Source of the DNA: Truepera sp.
Lineage (GTDB): Bacteria; Deinococcota; Deinococci; Deinococcales; Trueperaceae
Assembly: GCA_965218435.1 (NCBI GenBank)
Contig: CBDCKW010000009.1
Span: 1,728,001-1,792,000 of the forward strand
Direction of reading: 5' to 3'
Length of the DNA: 64,000 nt
Position numbers and translations under genes: made by a program. The notes under the pieces were generated by a model. That model ran no database searches, was not told the DNA's origin, and worked only from the letters and a program-made list of their open reading frames with translations. Positions 17,641-29,062 of this stretch are shown here, one piece after another. Position 1 is the first letter of the stretch, and every line of letters begins with the position of its first letter.

Positions 17641-19836
17641 CTAATTTATGGCTCCGGTAGGTTCTTTGTCCCGGTATTTAGCGAACTGCGGATGCCTATC
17701 AAACCACCTGGCCCGAGCCGTTTTCCAGACACCTAAGTCGGTCGTCACGTCAAAGCATTCCGGCGCAGCTTCGCGCAGCTCTTTTAAGTACCAGCTTTCA
17801 CCCCCGGTATAGACGATCGTGTTTTTGTGTCCGCGGCACGCACCCCGGTCGAGGATGTCGTACTTGACTCTAGGATCTTCCGACGGATCGACCTTCCCGG
17901 CGTAGCCCGAGATTAAGAATACATTGTCTCTCAGTACGAGTCGGCAGCCTTTGGTAACTTCCTTGGTGACCTTGAAAAGTTCGTTGTGGCTGGCTGGGCC
18001 GCTGCCCCCGCGAGACCGACCATACGTCCCTTTTTGTGGTTTCAGCGCGAGCAGCGTGTTTTGCACCTTAAAGCTGTAGTTGACGTTCCTGGCATCTTTC
18101 TGCTCTTTACGGCACGATAGGCCGGTATACGCCCAGTCAATCAGTACATCGTCAACCGTGCCGTCGTTAAAGCGGTCGTTTTCCACCCCGTCATCCCCGG
18201 CGTGGCGAATATACGAGTTGCGGAACAGCCAGTTGGGATTGTTGTTCTTAAAGGTGATGCCGTCGCCGGTATGAATAATCGTCATGTTTTCGACCGTCGC
18301 CTTGGGCGTATCGTAAAAGAGCAGACCAGGCGAGCTATGGAAGGTGTCCCAATCGGTGTCGTCACTTAAGCCGTTGTCGAGAAAGCCGCCGGAGAGACAC
18401 AGTGAGCTGTTGTCTTCCGCTAAAAACGCCGACCTCGCCAGCAGTTTGGCCTCGCGAGCATCAACCCTTATGCCGACACTTTTTTTAGCGATGTAGACCC
18501 TCGAGGTATAATCTCCAGCTAACGTAAGGAGCGGGGCGTCACCCTCAAGACAAGATGCGGACACTGCCGGTGTAACGGGGGCGGGAGTAACAGGTTCAGG
18601 CGTAGGGGCGGGTAGAGGCTCAGGCGTCGGTTCCGGGGCTGGCTGAGCTTCATACGTAATACTTAGAACCGGCGCGAGCACGCGACTCTTATCCCTTGCG
18701 TACGCCGAACGCTTGGCGCTGCCGTCACCGGTGACGTAAAACGCCAGCGCGTTCCCGGAGTTCCAACCGCCACGTGAAACAACCTCTTGGACAACGCCAC
18801 TTAGGTCGGGCGTGCGCACAGCTTGGTCTCTCTTCCAGGGTTCGGGCTGCCAGGGTGCCGAAGCTGCTGTTTGAGCTCGAGCCGTAAAGCTACCGTTAAA
18901 GGGGGCGGCGGTGTCGGCCGCTTCAGCCCGTACTTGCAAGTTGACCGGCGCTGAGTCGTCAGCGATGGCGGTAAAGCTGACTGTCGCCGCTTTGATCTTG
19001 GCCCCTTGCGGGAGGCTAACGCTGGTAAAGCGTAGGGCAACCGTTTGTCCATTTTGCGAAAAGTCGAGCGCCTTGCCGGTGGTTGTCAGGCTCGAGCCCT
19101 CTTCAGCGTCGTCTTTAGGGTCGGCCAGCTTGAGCGTCAAAGTGCCGCTCGTCGCAGTGGCTATGGGACCGCCGGAGAGCGCAGGCGCAGTTGCCCGCGT
19201 GTCTCCCCCGGTATAGGTCACCACGAGTTCGGGCGCAGCGCCGTAAGGATTGCCGAAAGCCATAGCTGAACGTTCACCGGCACTGCTCGAGCCGTCTACA
19301 AAGAGCGCCAAGGCGTTGCCGGACTGCCAACCGCTCCGGCTGACGATCTCTTGGACAACAGAAGCCAGGTTAGGCGTTTGGTAAGACTTACCGACTGCCC
19401 AACTACCCGGGTTCCACGCCGACATTGCCGACGTCTTGGTACGGCGACTGAGATTATTTTTAGCGGTAGAAAAGGTGTCGGCGTTGTTGCTCGCCTCACC
19501 GTAAAGGTTTAGGCTGACAGCCTCCGCGTCGTTGATGCCTGCCTTAAACACCAGGTAGGCGTTTTCAATCTTCGCGCCCGGCGGTACCTGAAGGTTTTGA
19601 AACCTCAATCCGGTCAGCTGCAAGACGCCACCTTTAGCCCGCAGATCGAGGAGCGAACCAGTCAGCTGGACAGAACGGCCTTCTATCTCTTCAGCGTCAT
19701 CGGAGGCGCTGACGATAGACGTGCGCACGGTCGTCGGCGTCGCCAACGTTTCTAACGCCGGTTCAGGCTCGAAACCGCTGCTGCACGCGGCAAGTAAGAC
19801 CAGCGAACCCAAAAGGTAACCTCTAGCGGATTTCAT
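17641..19836 (-). CDS. Surface lipoprotein: two repeated beta-sandwich (DDAEE-motif) domains, Pro-rich linker, C-terminal beta-helix-like domain
   Basis: Lipobox LLAAC after MKSARG with RBS GGAGG; internal duplication (DDAEE..LRF..P.GAKI..TP.L..VVQE.VSR.GW.SGNALA); PEPTPEP linker; DGITFK...DDGVEND beta-helix-like repeats. Confidence 0.75.
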   Translation of the reverse strand: MKSARGYLLGSLVLLAACSSGFEPEPALETLATPTTVRTSIVSASDDAEEIEGRSVQLTGSLLDLRAKGGVLQLTGLRFQNLQVPPGAKIENAYLVFKAGINDAEAVSLNLYGEASNNADTFSTAKNNLSRRTKTSAMSAWNPGSWAVGKSYQTPNLASVVQEIVSRSGWQSGNALALFVDGSSSAGERSAMAFGNPYGAAPELVVTYTGGDTRATAPALSGGPIATATSGTLTLKLADPKDDAEEGSSLTTTGKALDFSQNGQTVALRFTSVSLPQGAKIKAATVSFTAIADDSAPVNLQVRAEAADTAAPFNGSFTARAQTAASAPWQPEPWKRDQAVRTPDLSGVVQEVVSRGGWNSGNALAFYVTGDGSAKRSAYARDKSRVLAPVLSITYEAQPAPEPTPEPLPAPTPEPVTPAPVTPAVSASCLEGDAPLLTLAGDYTSRVYIAKKSVGIRVDAREAKLLARSAFLAEDNSSLCLSGGFLDNGLSDDTDWDTFHSSPGLLFYDTPKATVENMTIIHTGDGITFKNNNPNWLFRNSYIRHAGDDGVENDRFNDGTVDDVLIDWAYTGLSCRKEQKDARNVNYSFKVQNTLLALKPQKGTYGRSRGGSGPASHNELFKVTKEVTKGCRLVLRDNVFLISGYAGKVDPSEDPRVKYDILDRGACRGHKNTIVYTGGESWYLKELREAAPECFDVTTDLGVWKTARARWFDRHPQFAKYRDKEPTGAIN

Positions 19837-19916
19837 TGTTCCTCCACCCCAGATGAAATTGGACCTGTATTCAGATTCAGGTCGGGTTGCATGATGTGAG
19901 GGGGAGCAGGGGCTCT

Positions 19917-19990
19917 CCTCGGCCGGTTGCGCTACTGGCTCAGACTGTTTCAAGCGCCCAAATGAGAAACAGTCGTCATCGCTTCCGAGG
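19917..19990 (-). ncRNA. Cyclic di-GMP-II riboswitch
   Basis: Minus-strand CCUCGGAAGCGAUGA-CGACUGUUUC-UCAUUUGGGCGCUU-GAAACAGUC-UGAGCCAGUAGCGCAACCGGCCGAGG matches the class II layout (GGAA..UGA, stem, GGGCRCUU loop, UGAG..AGUAGYGCAACCG, pseudoknot GCGCU/AGCGC); lies in a 5' UTR. Confidence 0.85.
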
Positions 19991-20300
19991 GGCGGGGTAA
20001 CCCTTCGGTAAGGTTGAGAATACGGCAGAAATTCTTACAAGTTTCTTACAATCAGTGAGGCTCCGCGCGGCCCTAACACAGTATAAAGAGCAGCAAAGAG
20101 CGCAGCTGTTCGTTTTACTTTCCCCCAGTGAAGGCTAGACGAGCAGTCGCTTTTTGAACACAACCGCCGTTCAGCACACATCTTTACAAGGTAAGACCAA
20201 AACCTGCAGGCGTTTTATCCGCAGGGCAGGGCACGGAGGTAAGTACCTGTAGCCCGAAGCTTCTTGACTTTCCCTTACAGGTAACTGCTAAGGTGCGGTC

Positions 20301-24325: not shown

Positions 24326-25387
24326 ATGTTTTCTTCTCCCGACAGACCCACTCGCAAAGCCCGTTGGCCCGGAACCGCGCTGCTGTGGGGCACACTCGTG
24401 CTCGCCGGTATGGGCGCAGGGCTCGAGTTCGCCCGTGCGGGCATAAGCGGAATCGGCCTCATCCTCTCATGTGTCGCCGTTTTCAACCTCACCGCCCTCC
24501 TCAGTACTCACAGCTGGCGGCAACCCCTTAGGGCCGTAGCCCCGTACTTGTACCTTACCCTTTTGCTGGTGGGTTGGTTATACGCCTTTTATTTTGGCCG
24601 TTCGTCCGGGCTGGCGCAGCAGCTTATCCTTACGACGGTCCTGCTGTTACCGGTCCTTTACGCCCAGTTTTTCGACCGTCTGCCGGGGCCACAAGCCCTT
24701 TTGCAGGCTGGCACCGTCTTGCTCTCTTTTGCGCTCCTCAGCTTGCCCCACGCGCTTACGACCATAGCCGGTCCAGCTCTTTTTGACGGGCTCGGCTTTT
24801 TAGGTTTGTTTACGGTAGCTAATATTTTGCTCTTGACTTTTATCAGTGCGCCGCTGTGGACAGACGGCGAACTCGCCCATCTGCGCCGCGACGCCGCTTG
24901 GTTTCAGCGGCTGGCTCACCACGACTTTTTAACCGACCTACCTAACCGGCGGCAGCTCGAGCAGGTGCTAGGGGTCAGCCTCGCGCAATCGTCCCGTAGC
25001 GGAGTACCTTGCGCCGCACTGGTGATTGACATCGACCATTTCAAACGCCTTAACGACAGATTTGGTCACCCGGTCGGCGATAAGGTCCTCCGCGAAATCT
25101 CACGTCGCTTGCAAAACGAACTGCGGGCGGGCAGCACTTTGGGCCGCTGGGGGGGCGAAGAGTTTGTGGTCGTCGCGCCGCAAACCGAGCGCCACGAAGC
25201 GCAGCAGCTCGGGGAGCGGCTGCTCTACGCTGTTCGCGCCGATCCTATCGCCGGTGAGCACCTCGTCACCGTCTCCATCGGGATTACGAGTTACCGCCCC
25301 GGTGATACCCCGGAAACGCTGATCGCCCGCGCCGACCGCGCGCTTTACCGGGCCAAACAAGCCGGCCGCGATAGGCTCGCAGCGTAA
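24326..25387 (+). CDS. Membrane-bound diguanylate cyclase (GGDEF domain)
   Basis: TM N-terminus; DFLTDLPNRR, IDIDHFKRLNDRFGHPVGD, RWGGEEF and ADRALYRAK. Confidence 0.93.
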   Translation: MFSSPDRPTRKARWPGTALLWGTLVLAGMGAGLEFARAGISGIGLILSCVAVFNLTALLSTHSWRQPLRAVAPYLYLTLLLVGWLYAFYFGRSSGLAQQLILTTVLLLPVLYAQFFDRLPGPQALLQAGTVLLSFALLSLPHALTTIAGPALFDGLGFLGLFTVANILLLTFISAPLWTDGELAHLRRDAAWFQRLAHHDFLTDLPNRRQLEQVLGVSLAQSSRSGVPCAALVIDIDHFKRLNDRFGHPVGDKVLREISRRLQNELRAGSTLGRWGGEEFVVVAPQTERHEAQQLGERLLYAVRADPIAGEHLVTVSIGITSYRPGDTPETLIARADRALYRAKQAGRDRLAA

Positions 25388-25488: not shown

Positions 25489-27936
25489 ATGGTGTGGACG
25501 CAGAGACTCCTCACAAAACTTCACGCCCATCCCGGTCCTATCTTGCTCGAAGGGGGTGAGGCTTTTGGCGCACCCTTTTTGATCGAAGCCCTCAGCCACG
25601 CCCAAAGAGTCGCTTGGTTGCAGCTGACGCCCACTGAAGCGAGTGACTCGGTAGCTATCGGAAACCGCCTTGCAGACGCTGTAAACGCGGCGTTGGAGGC
25701 GAACTTTTTACCCCACGCCTTGCCTTTTAGCTACAGCATCGAGGTGTTGAGAAAACGCCTCCCGCTCCTCGGCAGTTTAACGATTGTCTGCTCAAACGCC
25801 GACTACACACCGCTCTTTCGTGACTCTTTACTCGAGCTCTCCGAAGTCGGCGCGAAAATTATTTTAATTACCAGTGGTACGACCCCTTCGTTTACAGGGC
25901 TGCATCTCCGGCAAGAAGACCTCGCCCTCACCCCGGAAGAGGCCGAACTTTTAGCGGGCCATTTTCTTAGCGAAGCCGAGCAGCGCACCCTACGGCTTTC
26001 ATCGGGAGGTGCCTATTTAACCTTTATGTGCAGCGTCTGCCGGTTGCGGGGAATGGCGCTGCCGCACGTTCCTTCACCAAGGGGGGCGCTCACCGCGCCG
26101 GGCGACGAAACGCTGGTGTCACCGGTGGTGCTGCTCGAGGTACTGCAAAAGCTCGGACGCTACGTCGAGGCGCTCGAGCTCGCCGTAATGAGCGTGCCTG
26201 AGCGGGTCGCTGAACTTATCGAAGAGGCGGGACCGGCGTATCAAGAGCGGGGACTACTTGCGCGTCTACACCTCCTTTTAGAAAGCTTAGACGATCCCTA
26301 CCAGAAAGCTGAAAAGGTGCTCGAGTGGCGGTTAGTTGCAGGCTTTGATCAATCAGATTACCGTCACATCATTGCTGTTATTAAAGCTCACTTAGAAGCT
26401 AACGAAGCGCCGGAATTACGTGCTCGTTACGCGGGTGTTTTTCCAAACTCAGAAGAAAGCTTCGTTCAAGCACAGCGTGCGGCAGCAGCAATGACAACGC
26501 CACTTACTCTATATCAGCTCGGTCGGTTGCACCGGAATGCAAAAATAGGTGTAACGATCTTACATCAGAGTGTCAAGCTTGCTGAGTCACTTGGACGGCA
26601 CTACGATGTCACCCGTAATGCAAGAGCATTGGCTGAAAGCCTTAACTATCTCGGTAGATTTCATGAAGCCGCTAACTGGAGTAACTGGGCATTACAAACC
26701 TTTACAAAAAAAGGATTACAGGACGGTACTGCGCGGCTACGCCTTCTTTATATCTACGCAACAGCCCATACCATTGTAGACCGTACTAACGGTTTGCAGC
26801 TTCTTCTCTTGGAAGCGAAAGATGCTGCTGACTCTGCGGAACTCGGTATAGCTACTGACATCCGGACTACGCTGGCAAATCTCGAGCTTGTACTAGGTAA
26901 CCTTAACGAGGCAGAAACTCTGGCCGCTGAAAACTTTGCACAGAGCCCACGCTGGCGACTTGGGGACTCTGCCGTACCACTTGTACGGATTTTACTCGAG
27001 CAAGGAAAATTTGATGAAGCCCTCGCCAAAGCTCAGTACGCTGTAACCTTGACCGACGGTGAGGATGATTTCGTTACACTCCCAGCATCTTTGGCACTCG
27101 GTATGGTTTATGCAGCGCAAGACCCCAAAGCGGCTCGAGAACATCTGCTTAAGGTACTCGAGGCACCCGACATCGAAGCGTCTTTCCGAGTGACGGCAGC
27201 CCTGCACCTGCTCAAAATTGGGGTACTCCGTTTCAGTGAGCTTGACGCGACTTTGCAAGAGATTTTGAAAGAGCTCTCACCGACCGGTTTTCGGCTTTTC
27301 TGCGGTCCCGAAGACGACTTTATCGGTGTCTGGAACATGCTCTCAGCTCAGCATACGCCTTTAAGGATCAAGGTTTTGGGCAAAGCAGAAGTGTGGCTAA
27401 ACGACAAACGTCTCTCGCTTAGCGCACGCGCTTTAGAAACACTCGTGCTGCTCGCGCTGCACCCCGAAGGTCTGATCCCCGAAGTGCTGCACAGCTACCT
27501 TTATGACAACGAAGACACAACGCTCGTGGCACTGCGCTCAGCCGTTTCCCGCTTGCGTGTACTCGTGCCCATCAGTGCTCACCCCGAGCCGTACCGCATC
27601 ACCGTGCCGTTTACCTTTGATGCAAACGACTGCGAGGCCGCGATTGTAGCCGGAGATATAAGAGCAGCCCTCGAGCTCTACCGCGGACCACTCCTGGAGA
27701 AAAGCGACGCACCCGGTATCCGTGAGGCGCGGCTTTACCTCGAGGAAAGGCTACGGCAAAGTACACTCCACTCCGGCGACGCCGAGGCGCTGCTACCGCT
27801 AGCAGAAACGCTTAGAGACGACCTCGAGCTGTGGCAAGCAACGCACGCGGCGCTCCCTAGCAGCGACGTTCGGCTGCCCCTTGTAAGGGCGCAGCTCCAC
27901 AGGGTAACCCAAGAACTGCGCCCAACCTATAATTAA
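25489..27936 (+). CDS. Large transcriptional regulator: degenerate MalT-like N-terminus, TPR-like middle, C-terminal winged-helix/BTAD-like region
   Basis: VAWLQL and LRQEDLALTPEEA (MalT-like); helical repeats (LGRFHEA, LGNLNEA, QGKFDEA); LRIKVLG...LVLLALHPEG...SAVSRLR...ALELYRGPLL. Confidence 0.75.
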   Translation: MVWTQRLLTKLHAHPGPILLEGGEAFGAPFLIEALSHAQRVAWLQLTPTEASDSVAIGNRLADAVNAALEANFLPHALPFSYSIEVLRKRLPLLGSLTIVCSNADYTPLFRDSLLELSEVGAKIILITSGTTPSFTGLHLRQEDLALTPEEAELLAGHFLSEAEQRTLRLSSGGAYLTFMCSVCRLRGMALPHVPSPRGALTAPGDETLVSPVVLLEVLQKLGRYVEALELAVMSVPERVAELIEEAGPAYQERGLLARLHLLLESLDDPYQKAEKVLEWRLVAGFDQSDYRHIIAVIKAHLEANEAPELRARYAGVFPNSEESFVQAQRAAAAMTTPLTLYQLGRLHRNAKIGVTILHQSVKLAESLGRHYDVTRNARALAESLNYLGRFHEAANWSNWALQTFTKKGLQDGTARLRLLYIYATAHTIVDRTNGLQLLLLEAKDAADSAELGIATDIRTTLANLELVLGNLNEAETLAAENFAQSPRWRLGDSAVPLVRILLEQGKFDEALAKAQYAVTLTDGEDDFVTLPASLALGMVYAAQDPKAAREHLLKVLEAPDIEASFRVTAALHLLKIGVLRFSELDATLQEILKELSPTGFRLFCGPEDDFIGVWNMLSAQHTPLRIKVLGKAEVWLNDKRLSLSARALETLVLLALHPEGLIPEVLHSYLYDNEDTTLVALRSAVSRLRVLVPISAHPEPYRITVPFTFDANDCEAAIVAGDIRAALELYRGPLLEKSDAPGIREARLYLEERLRQSTLHSGDAEALLPLAETLRDDLELWQATHAALPSSDVRLPLVRAQLHRVTQELRPTYN

Positions 27937-27977
27937 CCGACTCACCAATTAGTGCGGCCCAGCTTGCGAGTAAAGTC

Positions 27978-28163
27978 TTATGACGCCCGTAGTGATTGTG
28001 CCTGAGCGTACTCGCGTGGCGAAGATGGCCCGGCCGAACTTACCGCTTCATGCGCGTACACGGCTTCAATCAACTCAACTTCACGTAAAGCGACAAGCTC
28101 ACCGACACAGCTAAAGCGCCCGGTTTCAGCCAGGGCTTTTTTGGCTTCATCTCTAGTCATCAT
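27978..28163 (-). CDS. Small hypothetical protein (61 aa)
   Basis: Strong RBS AAGGAGG directly before ATG ATG ACT AGA (MMTRDEAKKALAE...). Confidence 0.55.
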   Translation of the reverse strand: MMTRDEAKKALAETGRFSCVGELVALREVELIEAVYAHEAVSSAGPSSPREYAQAQSLRAS

Positions 28164-28288
28164 AGTCCTCCTTATCAAAATGTAGACGCTACTGTGACGC
28201 AGGGATGTTGCAATACGCACAGCGGAAGCTGTAACACTGCGGCAACAGAGGTTTTGTACAGTTAAAGACAGTTAAAGGAGGCAACAAC

Positions 28289-28405
28289 ATGTTCAAAAAA
28301 GCCCTTATCATCGGTATGATTTGCTTAAGCGTAGGTAGTGTCGGCTTTGCAAGACCTAGGACCGGGGACCCTGGCTGTATCTCTCCTATGTCATCACGTA
28401 AATAG
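28289..28405 (+). CDS. Small secreted peptide precursor (38 aa)
   Basis: RBS AAAGGAGG; MFKKALIIGMICLSVGSVGFA-RPRTGDPGCISPMSSRK*, a Sec-type signal peptide plus a 17-aa tail; below the ORF-track size cutoff. Confidence 0.7.
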   Translation: MFKKALIIGMICLSVGSVGFARPRTGDPGCISPMSSRK

Positions 28406-28729
28406 CGTCTTAATATCCACGAGAAAGGTCACGGTCACACACTATCAAACCTGAACCCTCGCGAGCAGTTTCCCAAACCCGTGTTTGTAGGTGAGCGTGA
28501 ATACGACTTCGCGCTCACCTGACGCGTGTGTGAAGGTAGCCTCTATCTATTGCCCGAAAACGGATCGTCGTTTTACCGGGAGGTGTCACTTGTGTGCGTT
28601 CAAGTAGACTTTACAAACCGGGTGAGGCATTTCGGGAAGCAGCGGTGTTTTGGTTGGTAACAGCCCGTTTTGGTGCGTCACTGGTCAAACTGAGTTAATC
28701 AAAAGCTTGTGCGACTTTGCCACACGTCC

Positions 28730-29062
28730 TCTTGTGAAGAAACGCGGCGGTCGCTGCGCGTGTCGTCAGGTTTGCTTACCTCGTTAGAGAGTAGGCGGTT
28801 ATCTGGGATTGACCGGACGCCTCGAGCAGCTCGGCCTCGCCGCATACCTGCACGACTTGGAAAAACCCAGCTTATCAGCTGCGCTACTGCAAACACCCGA
28901 ACAGTTGACGACAGACGGATGGAAGCAGATGAGGCGGCACCCCGTGAGGGTGAACGTCTTTTAGGGGTGCCGCCGCCGCTTTTGGGCACAGTTATAGCGC
29001 AGCATCATGAACGGCTCGACGGGTCGGTGACGATCTACGACCGTCTTTCGGTGCATCTGTGA
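28730..29062 (+). pseudogene. Degraded HD-GYP c-di-GMP phosphodiesterase
   Basis: Across frameshifts: ETRRSLRV / LEQLGLAAYLHDLEK..LL.TPEQLT..WKQMRRHPV / EGERLL..VIAQHHERLDGS; the GYP motif is absent. Confidence 0.75.

Follow-up and report, generated by a model that had tools for sequence, protein, structure and literature searches.

A likely RRNPP-like peptide signalling system with a STAND/SARP-type receptor in Truepera

A stretch of 64,000 nucleotides (nt) from Truepera sp. (assembly GCA_965218435.1, contig CBDCKW010000009.1; hereafter the window) carries the gene of an 815-residue regulator followed, 352 bp downstream, by the gene of a 38-residue propeptide, and the two likely form a system of peptide signalling that resembles RRNPP and whose receptors are a new family. 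A preliminary description of this DNA had proposed an analogous peptide system with a different receptor architecture; that proposal is supported, whereas the term quorum sensing that it used would apply in the strict sense only if density is sensed between cells. The regulator, the peptide open reading frame (ORF) and its sequence, the gap and the ribosome-binding site (RBS) were found as described, and to these are now added a STAND/SARP architecture of the receptor, two predicted operators and two more cassette genes, one of them a phosphodiesterase gene behind the peptide. The elements of the receptor-peptide pair are:

25489..27936, plus strand: receptor/regulator, 815 residues; fold matches give a degenerate MalT-like NOD (about 1-207), an arm and TPR sensor (about 208-620) and a SARP domain composed of an OmpR-type winged helix-turn-helix (wHTH) and BTAD (about 616/621-813)
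28275..28281, plus strand: RBS of the peptide gene, AAGGAGG, 7 nt before the ATG
28289..28405, plus strand: propeptide, 38 residues, with a predicted signal peptide at residues 1-21 (28289-28351) and a Ser/Pro-rich tail
28352-28375, plus strand: predicted active unit RPRTGDPG, with its boundary taken from class B peptides ending in D-x-G and from tandem repeats

Linkage of regulator and propeptide genes

The pairing of regulator and peptide exceeds chance. As the preliminary description had suggested, the flanks of homologous regulators were scanned for short signal-peptide ORFs, using a fixed rule (28-65 residues, a positive N-region, an uncharged hydrophobic 10-mer, a hydrophilic tail and a Shine-Dalgarno sequence, within 800 nt). 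Such an ORF was found at 53 of 97 homologous regulators, compared with 25 of 964 genes of at least 400 residues in the window's own genome and 0 of 22 control regulators that have another sensor region, having only the C-terminal domain in common with the family and an upstream flank of at least 606 nt. The survey set comprised regulators of at least 500 residues flanked on either side by 700 nt or more; short-flank loci, proteins below 500 residues, two split genes and a locus from the unpublished genome G128 were set aside, and the counts include kin, that is, loci that are not independent. Relaxed curation by eye placed a peptide at 73 of the 97 loci, and further peptides were later found in L054, L102, L106 and L116, and in L021 via L203. 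Four cassette layouts track the receptor clades, and so does the type of peptide:

Layout A: peptide downstream, same strand; 9 loci, the window included
Layout B: peptide upstream, divergent; 37 loci
Layout C: peptide downstream, convergent; 29 loci
Layout D: peptide upstream, same strand; 8 loci

Clades A and B are sisters. The receptor and propeptide genes are directly adjacent in clade C, while in the window a 60-residue gene sits between them. Both regulator homologs found in the window's own genome have a peptide. The second cassette of this genome (G000:C9:3459950-3461829) consists of a 576-residue paralog lacking the NOD (L002:1492-3222, minus strand) and a convergent 50-residue propeptide (L002:1343-1495, plus strand); just upstream of the paralog a short fragment (L002:3229-3474, minus strand) has an intact Walker A motif and is perhaps a remnant of the lost NOD. 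Two variants were seen elsewhere. Clade D (L024, L025, L075, L096, L098, L099, L100 and L121) has propeptides of 33-35 residues with a very short tail, encoded upstream on the same strand, receptors with different pocket residues and a conserved GTTGGGAG motif upstream. In L026, L027, L123 and L125, from another family of the order, a convergent 87-residue propeptide ORF overlaps the 3' end of the regulator gene by 179 nt.

A homolog of the regulator is present in 106 of 128 genomes of the family Trueperaceae. Among named homologs the nearest, at 58%, is that of Truepera radiovictrix, the remaining named matches belong to Trueperaceae or Deinococcales, and full-length members were also found in two other families of the order. 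The Atlas cluster of the regulator is mostly from Deinococcota, and 491 representatives, to which no taxonomy is attached, match it at E 1e-30 or better. A related-locus search yielded one useful locus and six chance TPR matches.

The receptor, the peptide and their predicted contact

As modelled, the regulator has the build of a MalT-like STAND protein in degenerate form, with TPRs as its sensor and an AfsR-type SARP domain at the C-terminus. Its AlphaFold2 (AF2) model (predicted local distance difference test, pLDDT, 91.9) matches the MalT NOD 8bob over residues 1-207 (Z 14.8, root-mean-square deviation (rmsd) 3.1, 204 aligned), MalT domain III 1hz4 over about 270-620 (Z 22.9, rmsd 4.5, 317 aligned) and the AfsR SARP domain 8hvr over 616-813 (Z 14.9, rmsd 4.4, 196 aligned). 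The TPR region also matches Rap 8rte (Z 21.6), NprR (18.8) and AimR (18.5), and these Z values cannot settle whether it is nearer MalT or Rap; EmbR is likewise a fold match for the wHTH and BTAD, and the top Foldseek match is the STAND protein PH0952. The TPR-like core announced in the preliminary description is recovered by Pfam (TPR_12, E 1.9e-10). The C-terminal wHTH/BTAD region stands by structure but not by Pfam, which gave no BTAD match on the regulator, and OmpR/PhoB-type sequence matches there are weak; an NCBIfam search at the locus returned no family. A single-sequence fold of the N-terminal 210 residues reached a pLDDT of 39.7 and was discarded. Because a STAND-like NOD precedes its TPR sensor and a SARP domain follows at the C-terminus, the regulator is by its architecture no member of RRNPP. 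In the P-loop columns of 107 full-length rows the Walker A lysine is never among the four commonest residues, the Walker B aspartate was not seen in the column profiles of the same rows, and some members (560-580 residues) lack the NOD altogether and nonetheless keep the peptide; since both Walker residues are missing and the NOD is dispensed with in part of the family, ATP binding has probably been lost.

The propeptide is conserved, and its length of 38 residues falls in the RRNPP(A) range of 10-100 residues. That it consists of a signal peptide and a short mature part, as first proposed, is predicted by our own heuristic together with a conserved n-h-c pattern, and the codons agree: when the three closest class A loci are compared, the signal part shows 18 synonymous and 4 non-synonymous differences, and the mature part 17 and 24, respectively. 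In class B the propeptide ends in D-x-G in 32 of 32 aligned sequences, with D and G invariant, and the terminal 12-13-mer is copied in tandem, twice in L110 and four times in L106, L116 and L198; these copies delimit the active unit and imply that the internal ones are cut out. Tandem copies, with the internal ones cut out, are described for RRNPPA propeptides in an excerpt of PMC11343458. The peptide of the window has D-P-G at mature positions 6-8, and since this parallels the class B end and the repeat units, its putative active unit is RPRTGDPG, ending in D-P-G.

The co-folding of receptor and peptide and the search for co-variation, both proposed in the preliminary description, point to the TPR groove as the predicted binding site. 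Co-folding was run on the pair of a relative, L016, a class B locus whose motif lies at the free C-terminus, and gave a score of 0.80 against 0.01 for the best control; of 157 solved pairs 116 attain the mark, and of 215 mismatched ones 2 do, counts that are only rough with the alignments used here. Contact agreement was at least 48% and the pLDDT of the partner at least 41. The confident predicted contacts join R347 to the Asp, R377 to the Gly and T319 to the middle residue of D-x-G. The pocket formed by R313, Q343, R346 and R376 (window equivalents) is invariant in 46 of 46 clade A and B receptors, the window included, and variable in clades C and D. Of 649 predictors of Val at the penultimate residue of the peptide, the strongest is receptor column 319 (phi 0.77), which is predicted to touch that residue and has Thr for 0 of 14 Val peptides versus 22 of 27 others; 4-5 of 6 independent pairs change in the same direction and none in the opposite one (sign test, p about 0.06).

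Operators and linked genes

The 352-bp gap holds a further gene and two predicted operators that had been overlooked, and phosphodiesterase and cyclase genes of cyclic di-GMP (c-di-GMP), a lifestyle-switching messenger, flank the pair, in keeping with the c-di-GMP genes mentioned in the preliminary description. These features are:

27978..28160, minus strand: gene of a conserved 60-residue protein, divergent from the peptide gene
28167-28173, minus strand: RBS of the 60-residue gene, AAGGAGG
28179..28212, minus strand: predicted SARP-type operator and -10 for the 60-residue gene, TGCAACA-N4-TGCGTCA-N10-TACATT
28230..28262, plus strand: predicted SARP-type operator and -10 for the peptide gene, TGTAACA-N4-GGCAACA-N9-TACAGT
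28647..29023, plus strand: broken HD-GYP gene (c-di-GMP phosphodiesterase), with an in-frame stop and a frameshift
24326..25387, plus strand: membrane GGDEF diguanylate cyclase, intact, upstream of the regulator

Between the two small genes stand back-to-back heptamer pairs with an 11-bp period, and behind each pair comes TAnnnT at an almost constant spacing. At a match of at least 6/7, pairs occur on the peptide side of 41 and on the 60-residue side of 34 of the 46 loci, where shuffles average about 0.2, with 0.22 for the peptide side, and pairs at periods 8-10 and 12-15 occur at 0-1 loci; the window's own pairs match at 5/7. Direct repeats of 11-bp period just upstream of the -10 are given for SARP promoters in part of PMC10936776, and it may be the regulator that binds the heptamer pairs. 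Clade A has the heptamer TGCAACG and most of clade B has TGAAGCG, and the recognition helix, compared by eye, seems to differ between clades too. The class B operator is nearly confined to the cassette, being matched in 5 of 7 class B genomes searched with one extra site, a perfect operator in G013 (G013:C3:358868-358901, minus strand; L197) for which the filter found no downstream gene. A sigma-70 scan picked up neither promoter. Clade C promoters (L074, L093, L015 and L083) carry short repeats of their own upstream of the peptide, such as GTAACGC four times at an 11-bp period in L074, which suggests clade-specific operators.

A homolog of the 60-residue protein is encoded at every one of the 46 loci of classes A (9/9) and B (37/37); at E < 0.01 none was found at 29 class C and 8 class D loci, a faintly similar gene being present in three class C loci. 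In a search of 201 genomes, 28 of 30 matches to it adjoin a regulator, and it is likely an output of the regulator. It has no match in Pfam, PDB or Atlas, and a likeness to a CRP wing noticed by eye was rejected (HHalign probability 0.4, within shuffles). An orphan second copy (L196; G000:C9:418689-418883, minus strand) lies between two MFS-like transporter genes and has no regulator, peptide or class A operator.

Directly 3' of the peptide gene and on the same strand, a phosphodiesterase gene was found in relatives: EAL in 19 of 19 class B loci with a flank of at least 600 nt, HD-GYP in 6 of 9 class A and 1 of 8 class D loci, and neither in 29 class C loci, so that two unrelated phosphodiesterase families occupy one slot behind the peptide. 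What we take to be the EAL catalytic motifs look retained, with loop 6 divergent. HD-GYP is intact at this position in relatives of the window, while a close relative, L004, lacks the gene and keeps the rest of the cassette. As the HD-GYP output is broken in this genome, the 60-residue protein may be the remaining one. The GGDEF gene adjoins just 5 loci, all of class A, and is thus peripheral to the cassette.

A separate motif, TGTAAGA-N4-TGTAAGA-N10-TAnnnT, was found at 28 sites genome-wide at up to 3 mismatches, 24 of them intergenic, and looks like the family-wide regulon of some OmpR/SARP-type activator. It lies at 20050 (minus strand) in the window, upstream of a 770-residue secreted protein (17641-19953), and elsewhere precedes genes labelled by eye as GAF/PAS signalling, pilin-like, CRP-like and ClpC. 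It is present in 17 of 18 genomes of the family, with a reversed-pattern control of about 0. As a regulon of the present regulator it was rejected, since it occurs regardless of receptor clade and also in two genomes where a single-protein query found no receptor, whereas the class B operator is nearly cassette-only.

Proposed circuit, competing explanations and known systems

From the gene linkage, domain folds, operators, repeats and conserved pocket residues seen in the sequence, we infer the export, processing, import and binding of the peptide, the direction of the switch and the co-transcription of the phosphodiesterase gene as follows, giving the whole circuit a probability of about 0.68. 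The 38-residue propeptide would be exported, cut down to a short unit that ends in D-P-G and re-imported by one of the 16 family-5 peptide-binding proteins that the genome encodes, none of them adjacent. The unit would then bind the TPR groove, with Arg346 meeting its Asp and Arg376 its terminal Gly, and release a clamp formed by the degenerate NOD and the arm; with the Walker A lysine lost, this step probably needs no ATP. The freed C-terminal SARP domain would dock on the heptamer pairs, which overlap the -35 region, and activate two divergent promoters, one for the peptide, which would give feedback, and probably also for the EAL or HD-GYP phosphodiesterase, so that c-di-GMP would fall, and the other for the 60-residue protein. 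We lean towards the peptide being an activator of the switch. In AimR the peptide inhibits the receptor, and inhibition of this kind, which would fit the same anatomy, is only somewhat less probable.

Several points weigh against this circuit. Even after curation 24 of the 97 loci have no peptide, and no importer or protease genes lie near the cassette; the phylum has a two-membrane envelope that the peptide would need to cross. D-x-G is present in only 5 of 9 class A peptides despite the invariant pocket, and in 7 of 29 class C peptides, and the class A motif is internal, so that trimming is required. The co-fold concerns a relative's pair with an uncertain partner fold, may pass through likeness to solved Rap/NprR complexes, and drew on the same alignments as the co-variation, the two being therefore not independent of each other; column 319 was first noticed by eye, before the ranking. 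In the window itself, the HD-GYP gene is broken and position 421 is Tyr, where 74% of family rows have Asn.

The main rival holds that the peptide is indeed the ligand but stays in the periplasm of its producer, the circuit timing or reporting secretion, protease activity or the state of the envelope. Linkage, pocket and operators fit this self-sensing equally well, the outer membrane would be a barrier to release, and the 16 family-5 proteins could serve periplasmic uptake; nevertheless we regard it as unlikely, for the mature part diversifies among close relatives while the signal part is kept, and the units are amplified in tandem, and amplification with diversification is expected of a signal passed between cells. 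Less probable still is that the peptide is merely a co-regulated secreted or membrane product and that the regulator, a STAND-type activator, senses another ligand, as MalT does maltotriose. MalT domain III outscores Rap as a fold match for the TPR region, the peptide promoter resembles a target of the regulator, and the regulators with no detected peptide would be accommodated, but this explanation does not account for a co-fold score that exceeds the controls and predicted contacts that fall on invariant residues, the co-variation at column 319, exact tandem repeats of a 12-13-residue unit, or the lack of peptides beside regulators with another sensor region. That the family does signal while the copy in this genome is in decay and has ceased to respond, as the HD-GYP pseudogene and Tyr421 might suggest, is very improbable, given that the regulator, the peptide, the 60-residue gene, the RBSs and both operators are intact, that Tyr421 is common to three intact relatives and that L004 has kept the rest of its cassette with no HD-GYP gene.

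The peptide circuit resembles the RRNPP(A) systems (Rap-Phr, NprR-NprX, PlcR-PapR, AimR-AimP) in the small predicted signal-peptide gene close to that of a cytoplasmic TPR protein, the TPR fold matching Rap, NprR and AimR, the tandem pheromone units and the variable mature part, and its 60-residue gene recalls aimX, a small co-regulated gene. It differs in the layout of the receptor, which begins with a degenerate NOD and ends with a SARP domain where those systems have an N-terminal HTH or helix bundle, in the direct-repeat operators, in the linked c-di-GMP phosphodiesterase and in belonging to Deinococcota rather than Bacillota; moreover, the receptor has 815 residues (the shortest intact members about 560-580), against a criterion of 250-500 in PMC10075063. 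With MalT and PH0952 it shares the order NOD-arm-TPR-effector and the fold matches to the MalT NOD, domain III and PH0952, and ligand-released autoinhibition is the STAND model in an excerpt of PMC6468293; unlike them, it lacks the Walker A Lys and the Walker B acidic residue, some members have no NOD, the output is SARP rather than LuxR and the predicted ligand is an encoded peptide. The large SARP system AfsR-afsS is similar in its OmpR-type wHTH and BTAD, in repeats of 11-bp period just upstream of the -10, in a SARP domain modulated by NOD and TPR, and in a small neighbouring target gene, afsS itself being small. In the cassette, however, the SARP domain is C-terminal (616-813) rather than N-terminal and the ATP site is degenerate, and for AfsR no inducer or propeptide is known, the inducer remaining elusive according to PMC10936776. 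The cassette would work like RRNPP with another architecture; it is STAND-like but has no Walker motifs, and it is SARP-like but has its domains in the opposite order.

Peptide signalling through intracellular receptors is described as a Bacillota trait in part of PMC10075063, literature searches covering few subscription journals found such signalling in Bacillota only and no description of the cassette, and a term search of a portion of bioRxiv 10.1101/2023.09.19.558401 gave no mention of Deinococcota. The 250-500-residue receptor criterion of RRNPP_detector would miss this receptor family. If the circuit is true, RRNPP logic reaches a distant phylum, a STAND-type sensor gains a ligand class and a peptide signal is tied to c-di-GMP. 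We would give even odds to the broader view that peptide quorum sensing arose independently in Deinococcota when a STAND (NLR-type) switch became a receptor, independent of ATP, for a self-encoded pheromone, with strain-specific peptide alleles, co-evolving pockets and operators, and density wired to c-di-GMP breakdown and a 60-residue effector. Each component, from the peptide unit and the pocket residues to the bases of the operators and the target genes, is defined finely enough for testing, and allelic receptor-peptide-operator sets could become orthogonal inducible switches.

Elsewhere in the genome, features of contig G000:C5 recur, unchanged or nearly so, at a distance of about 242 kb (for example 7899/250443, 50866/292942 and 43284/285361), which suggests a long duplication or an assembly overlap.

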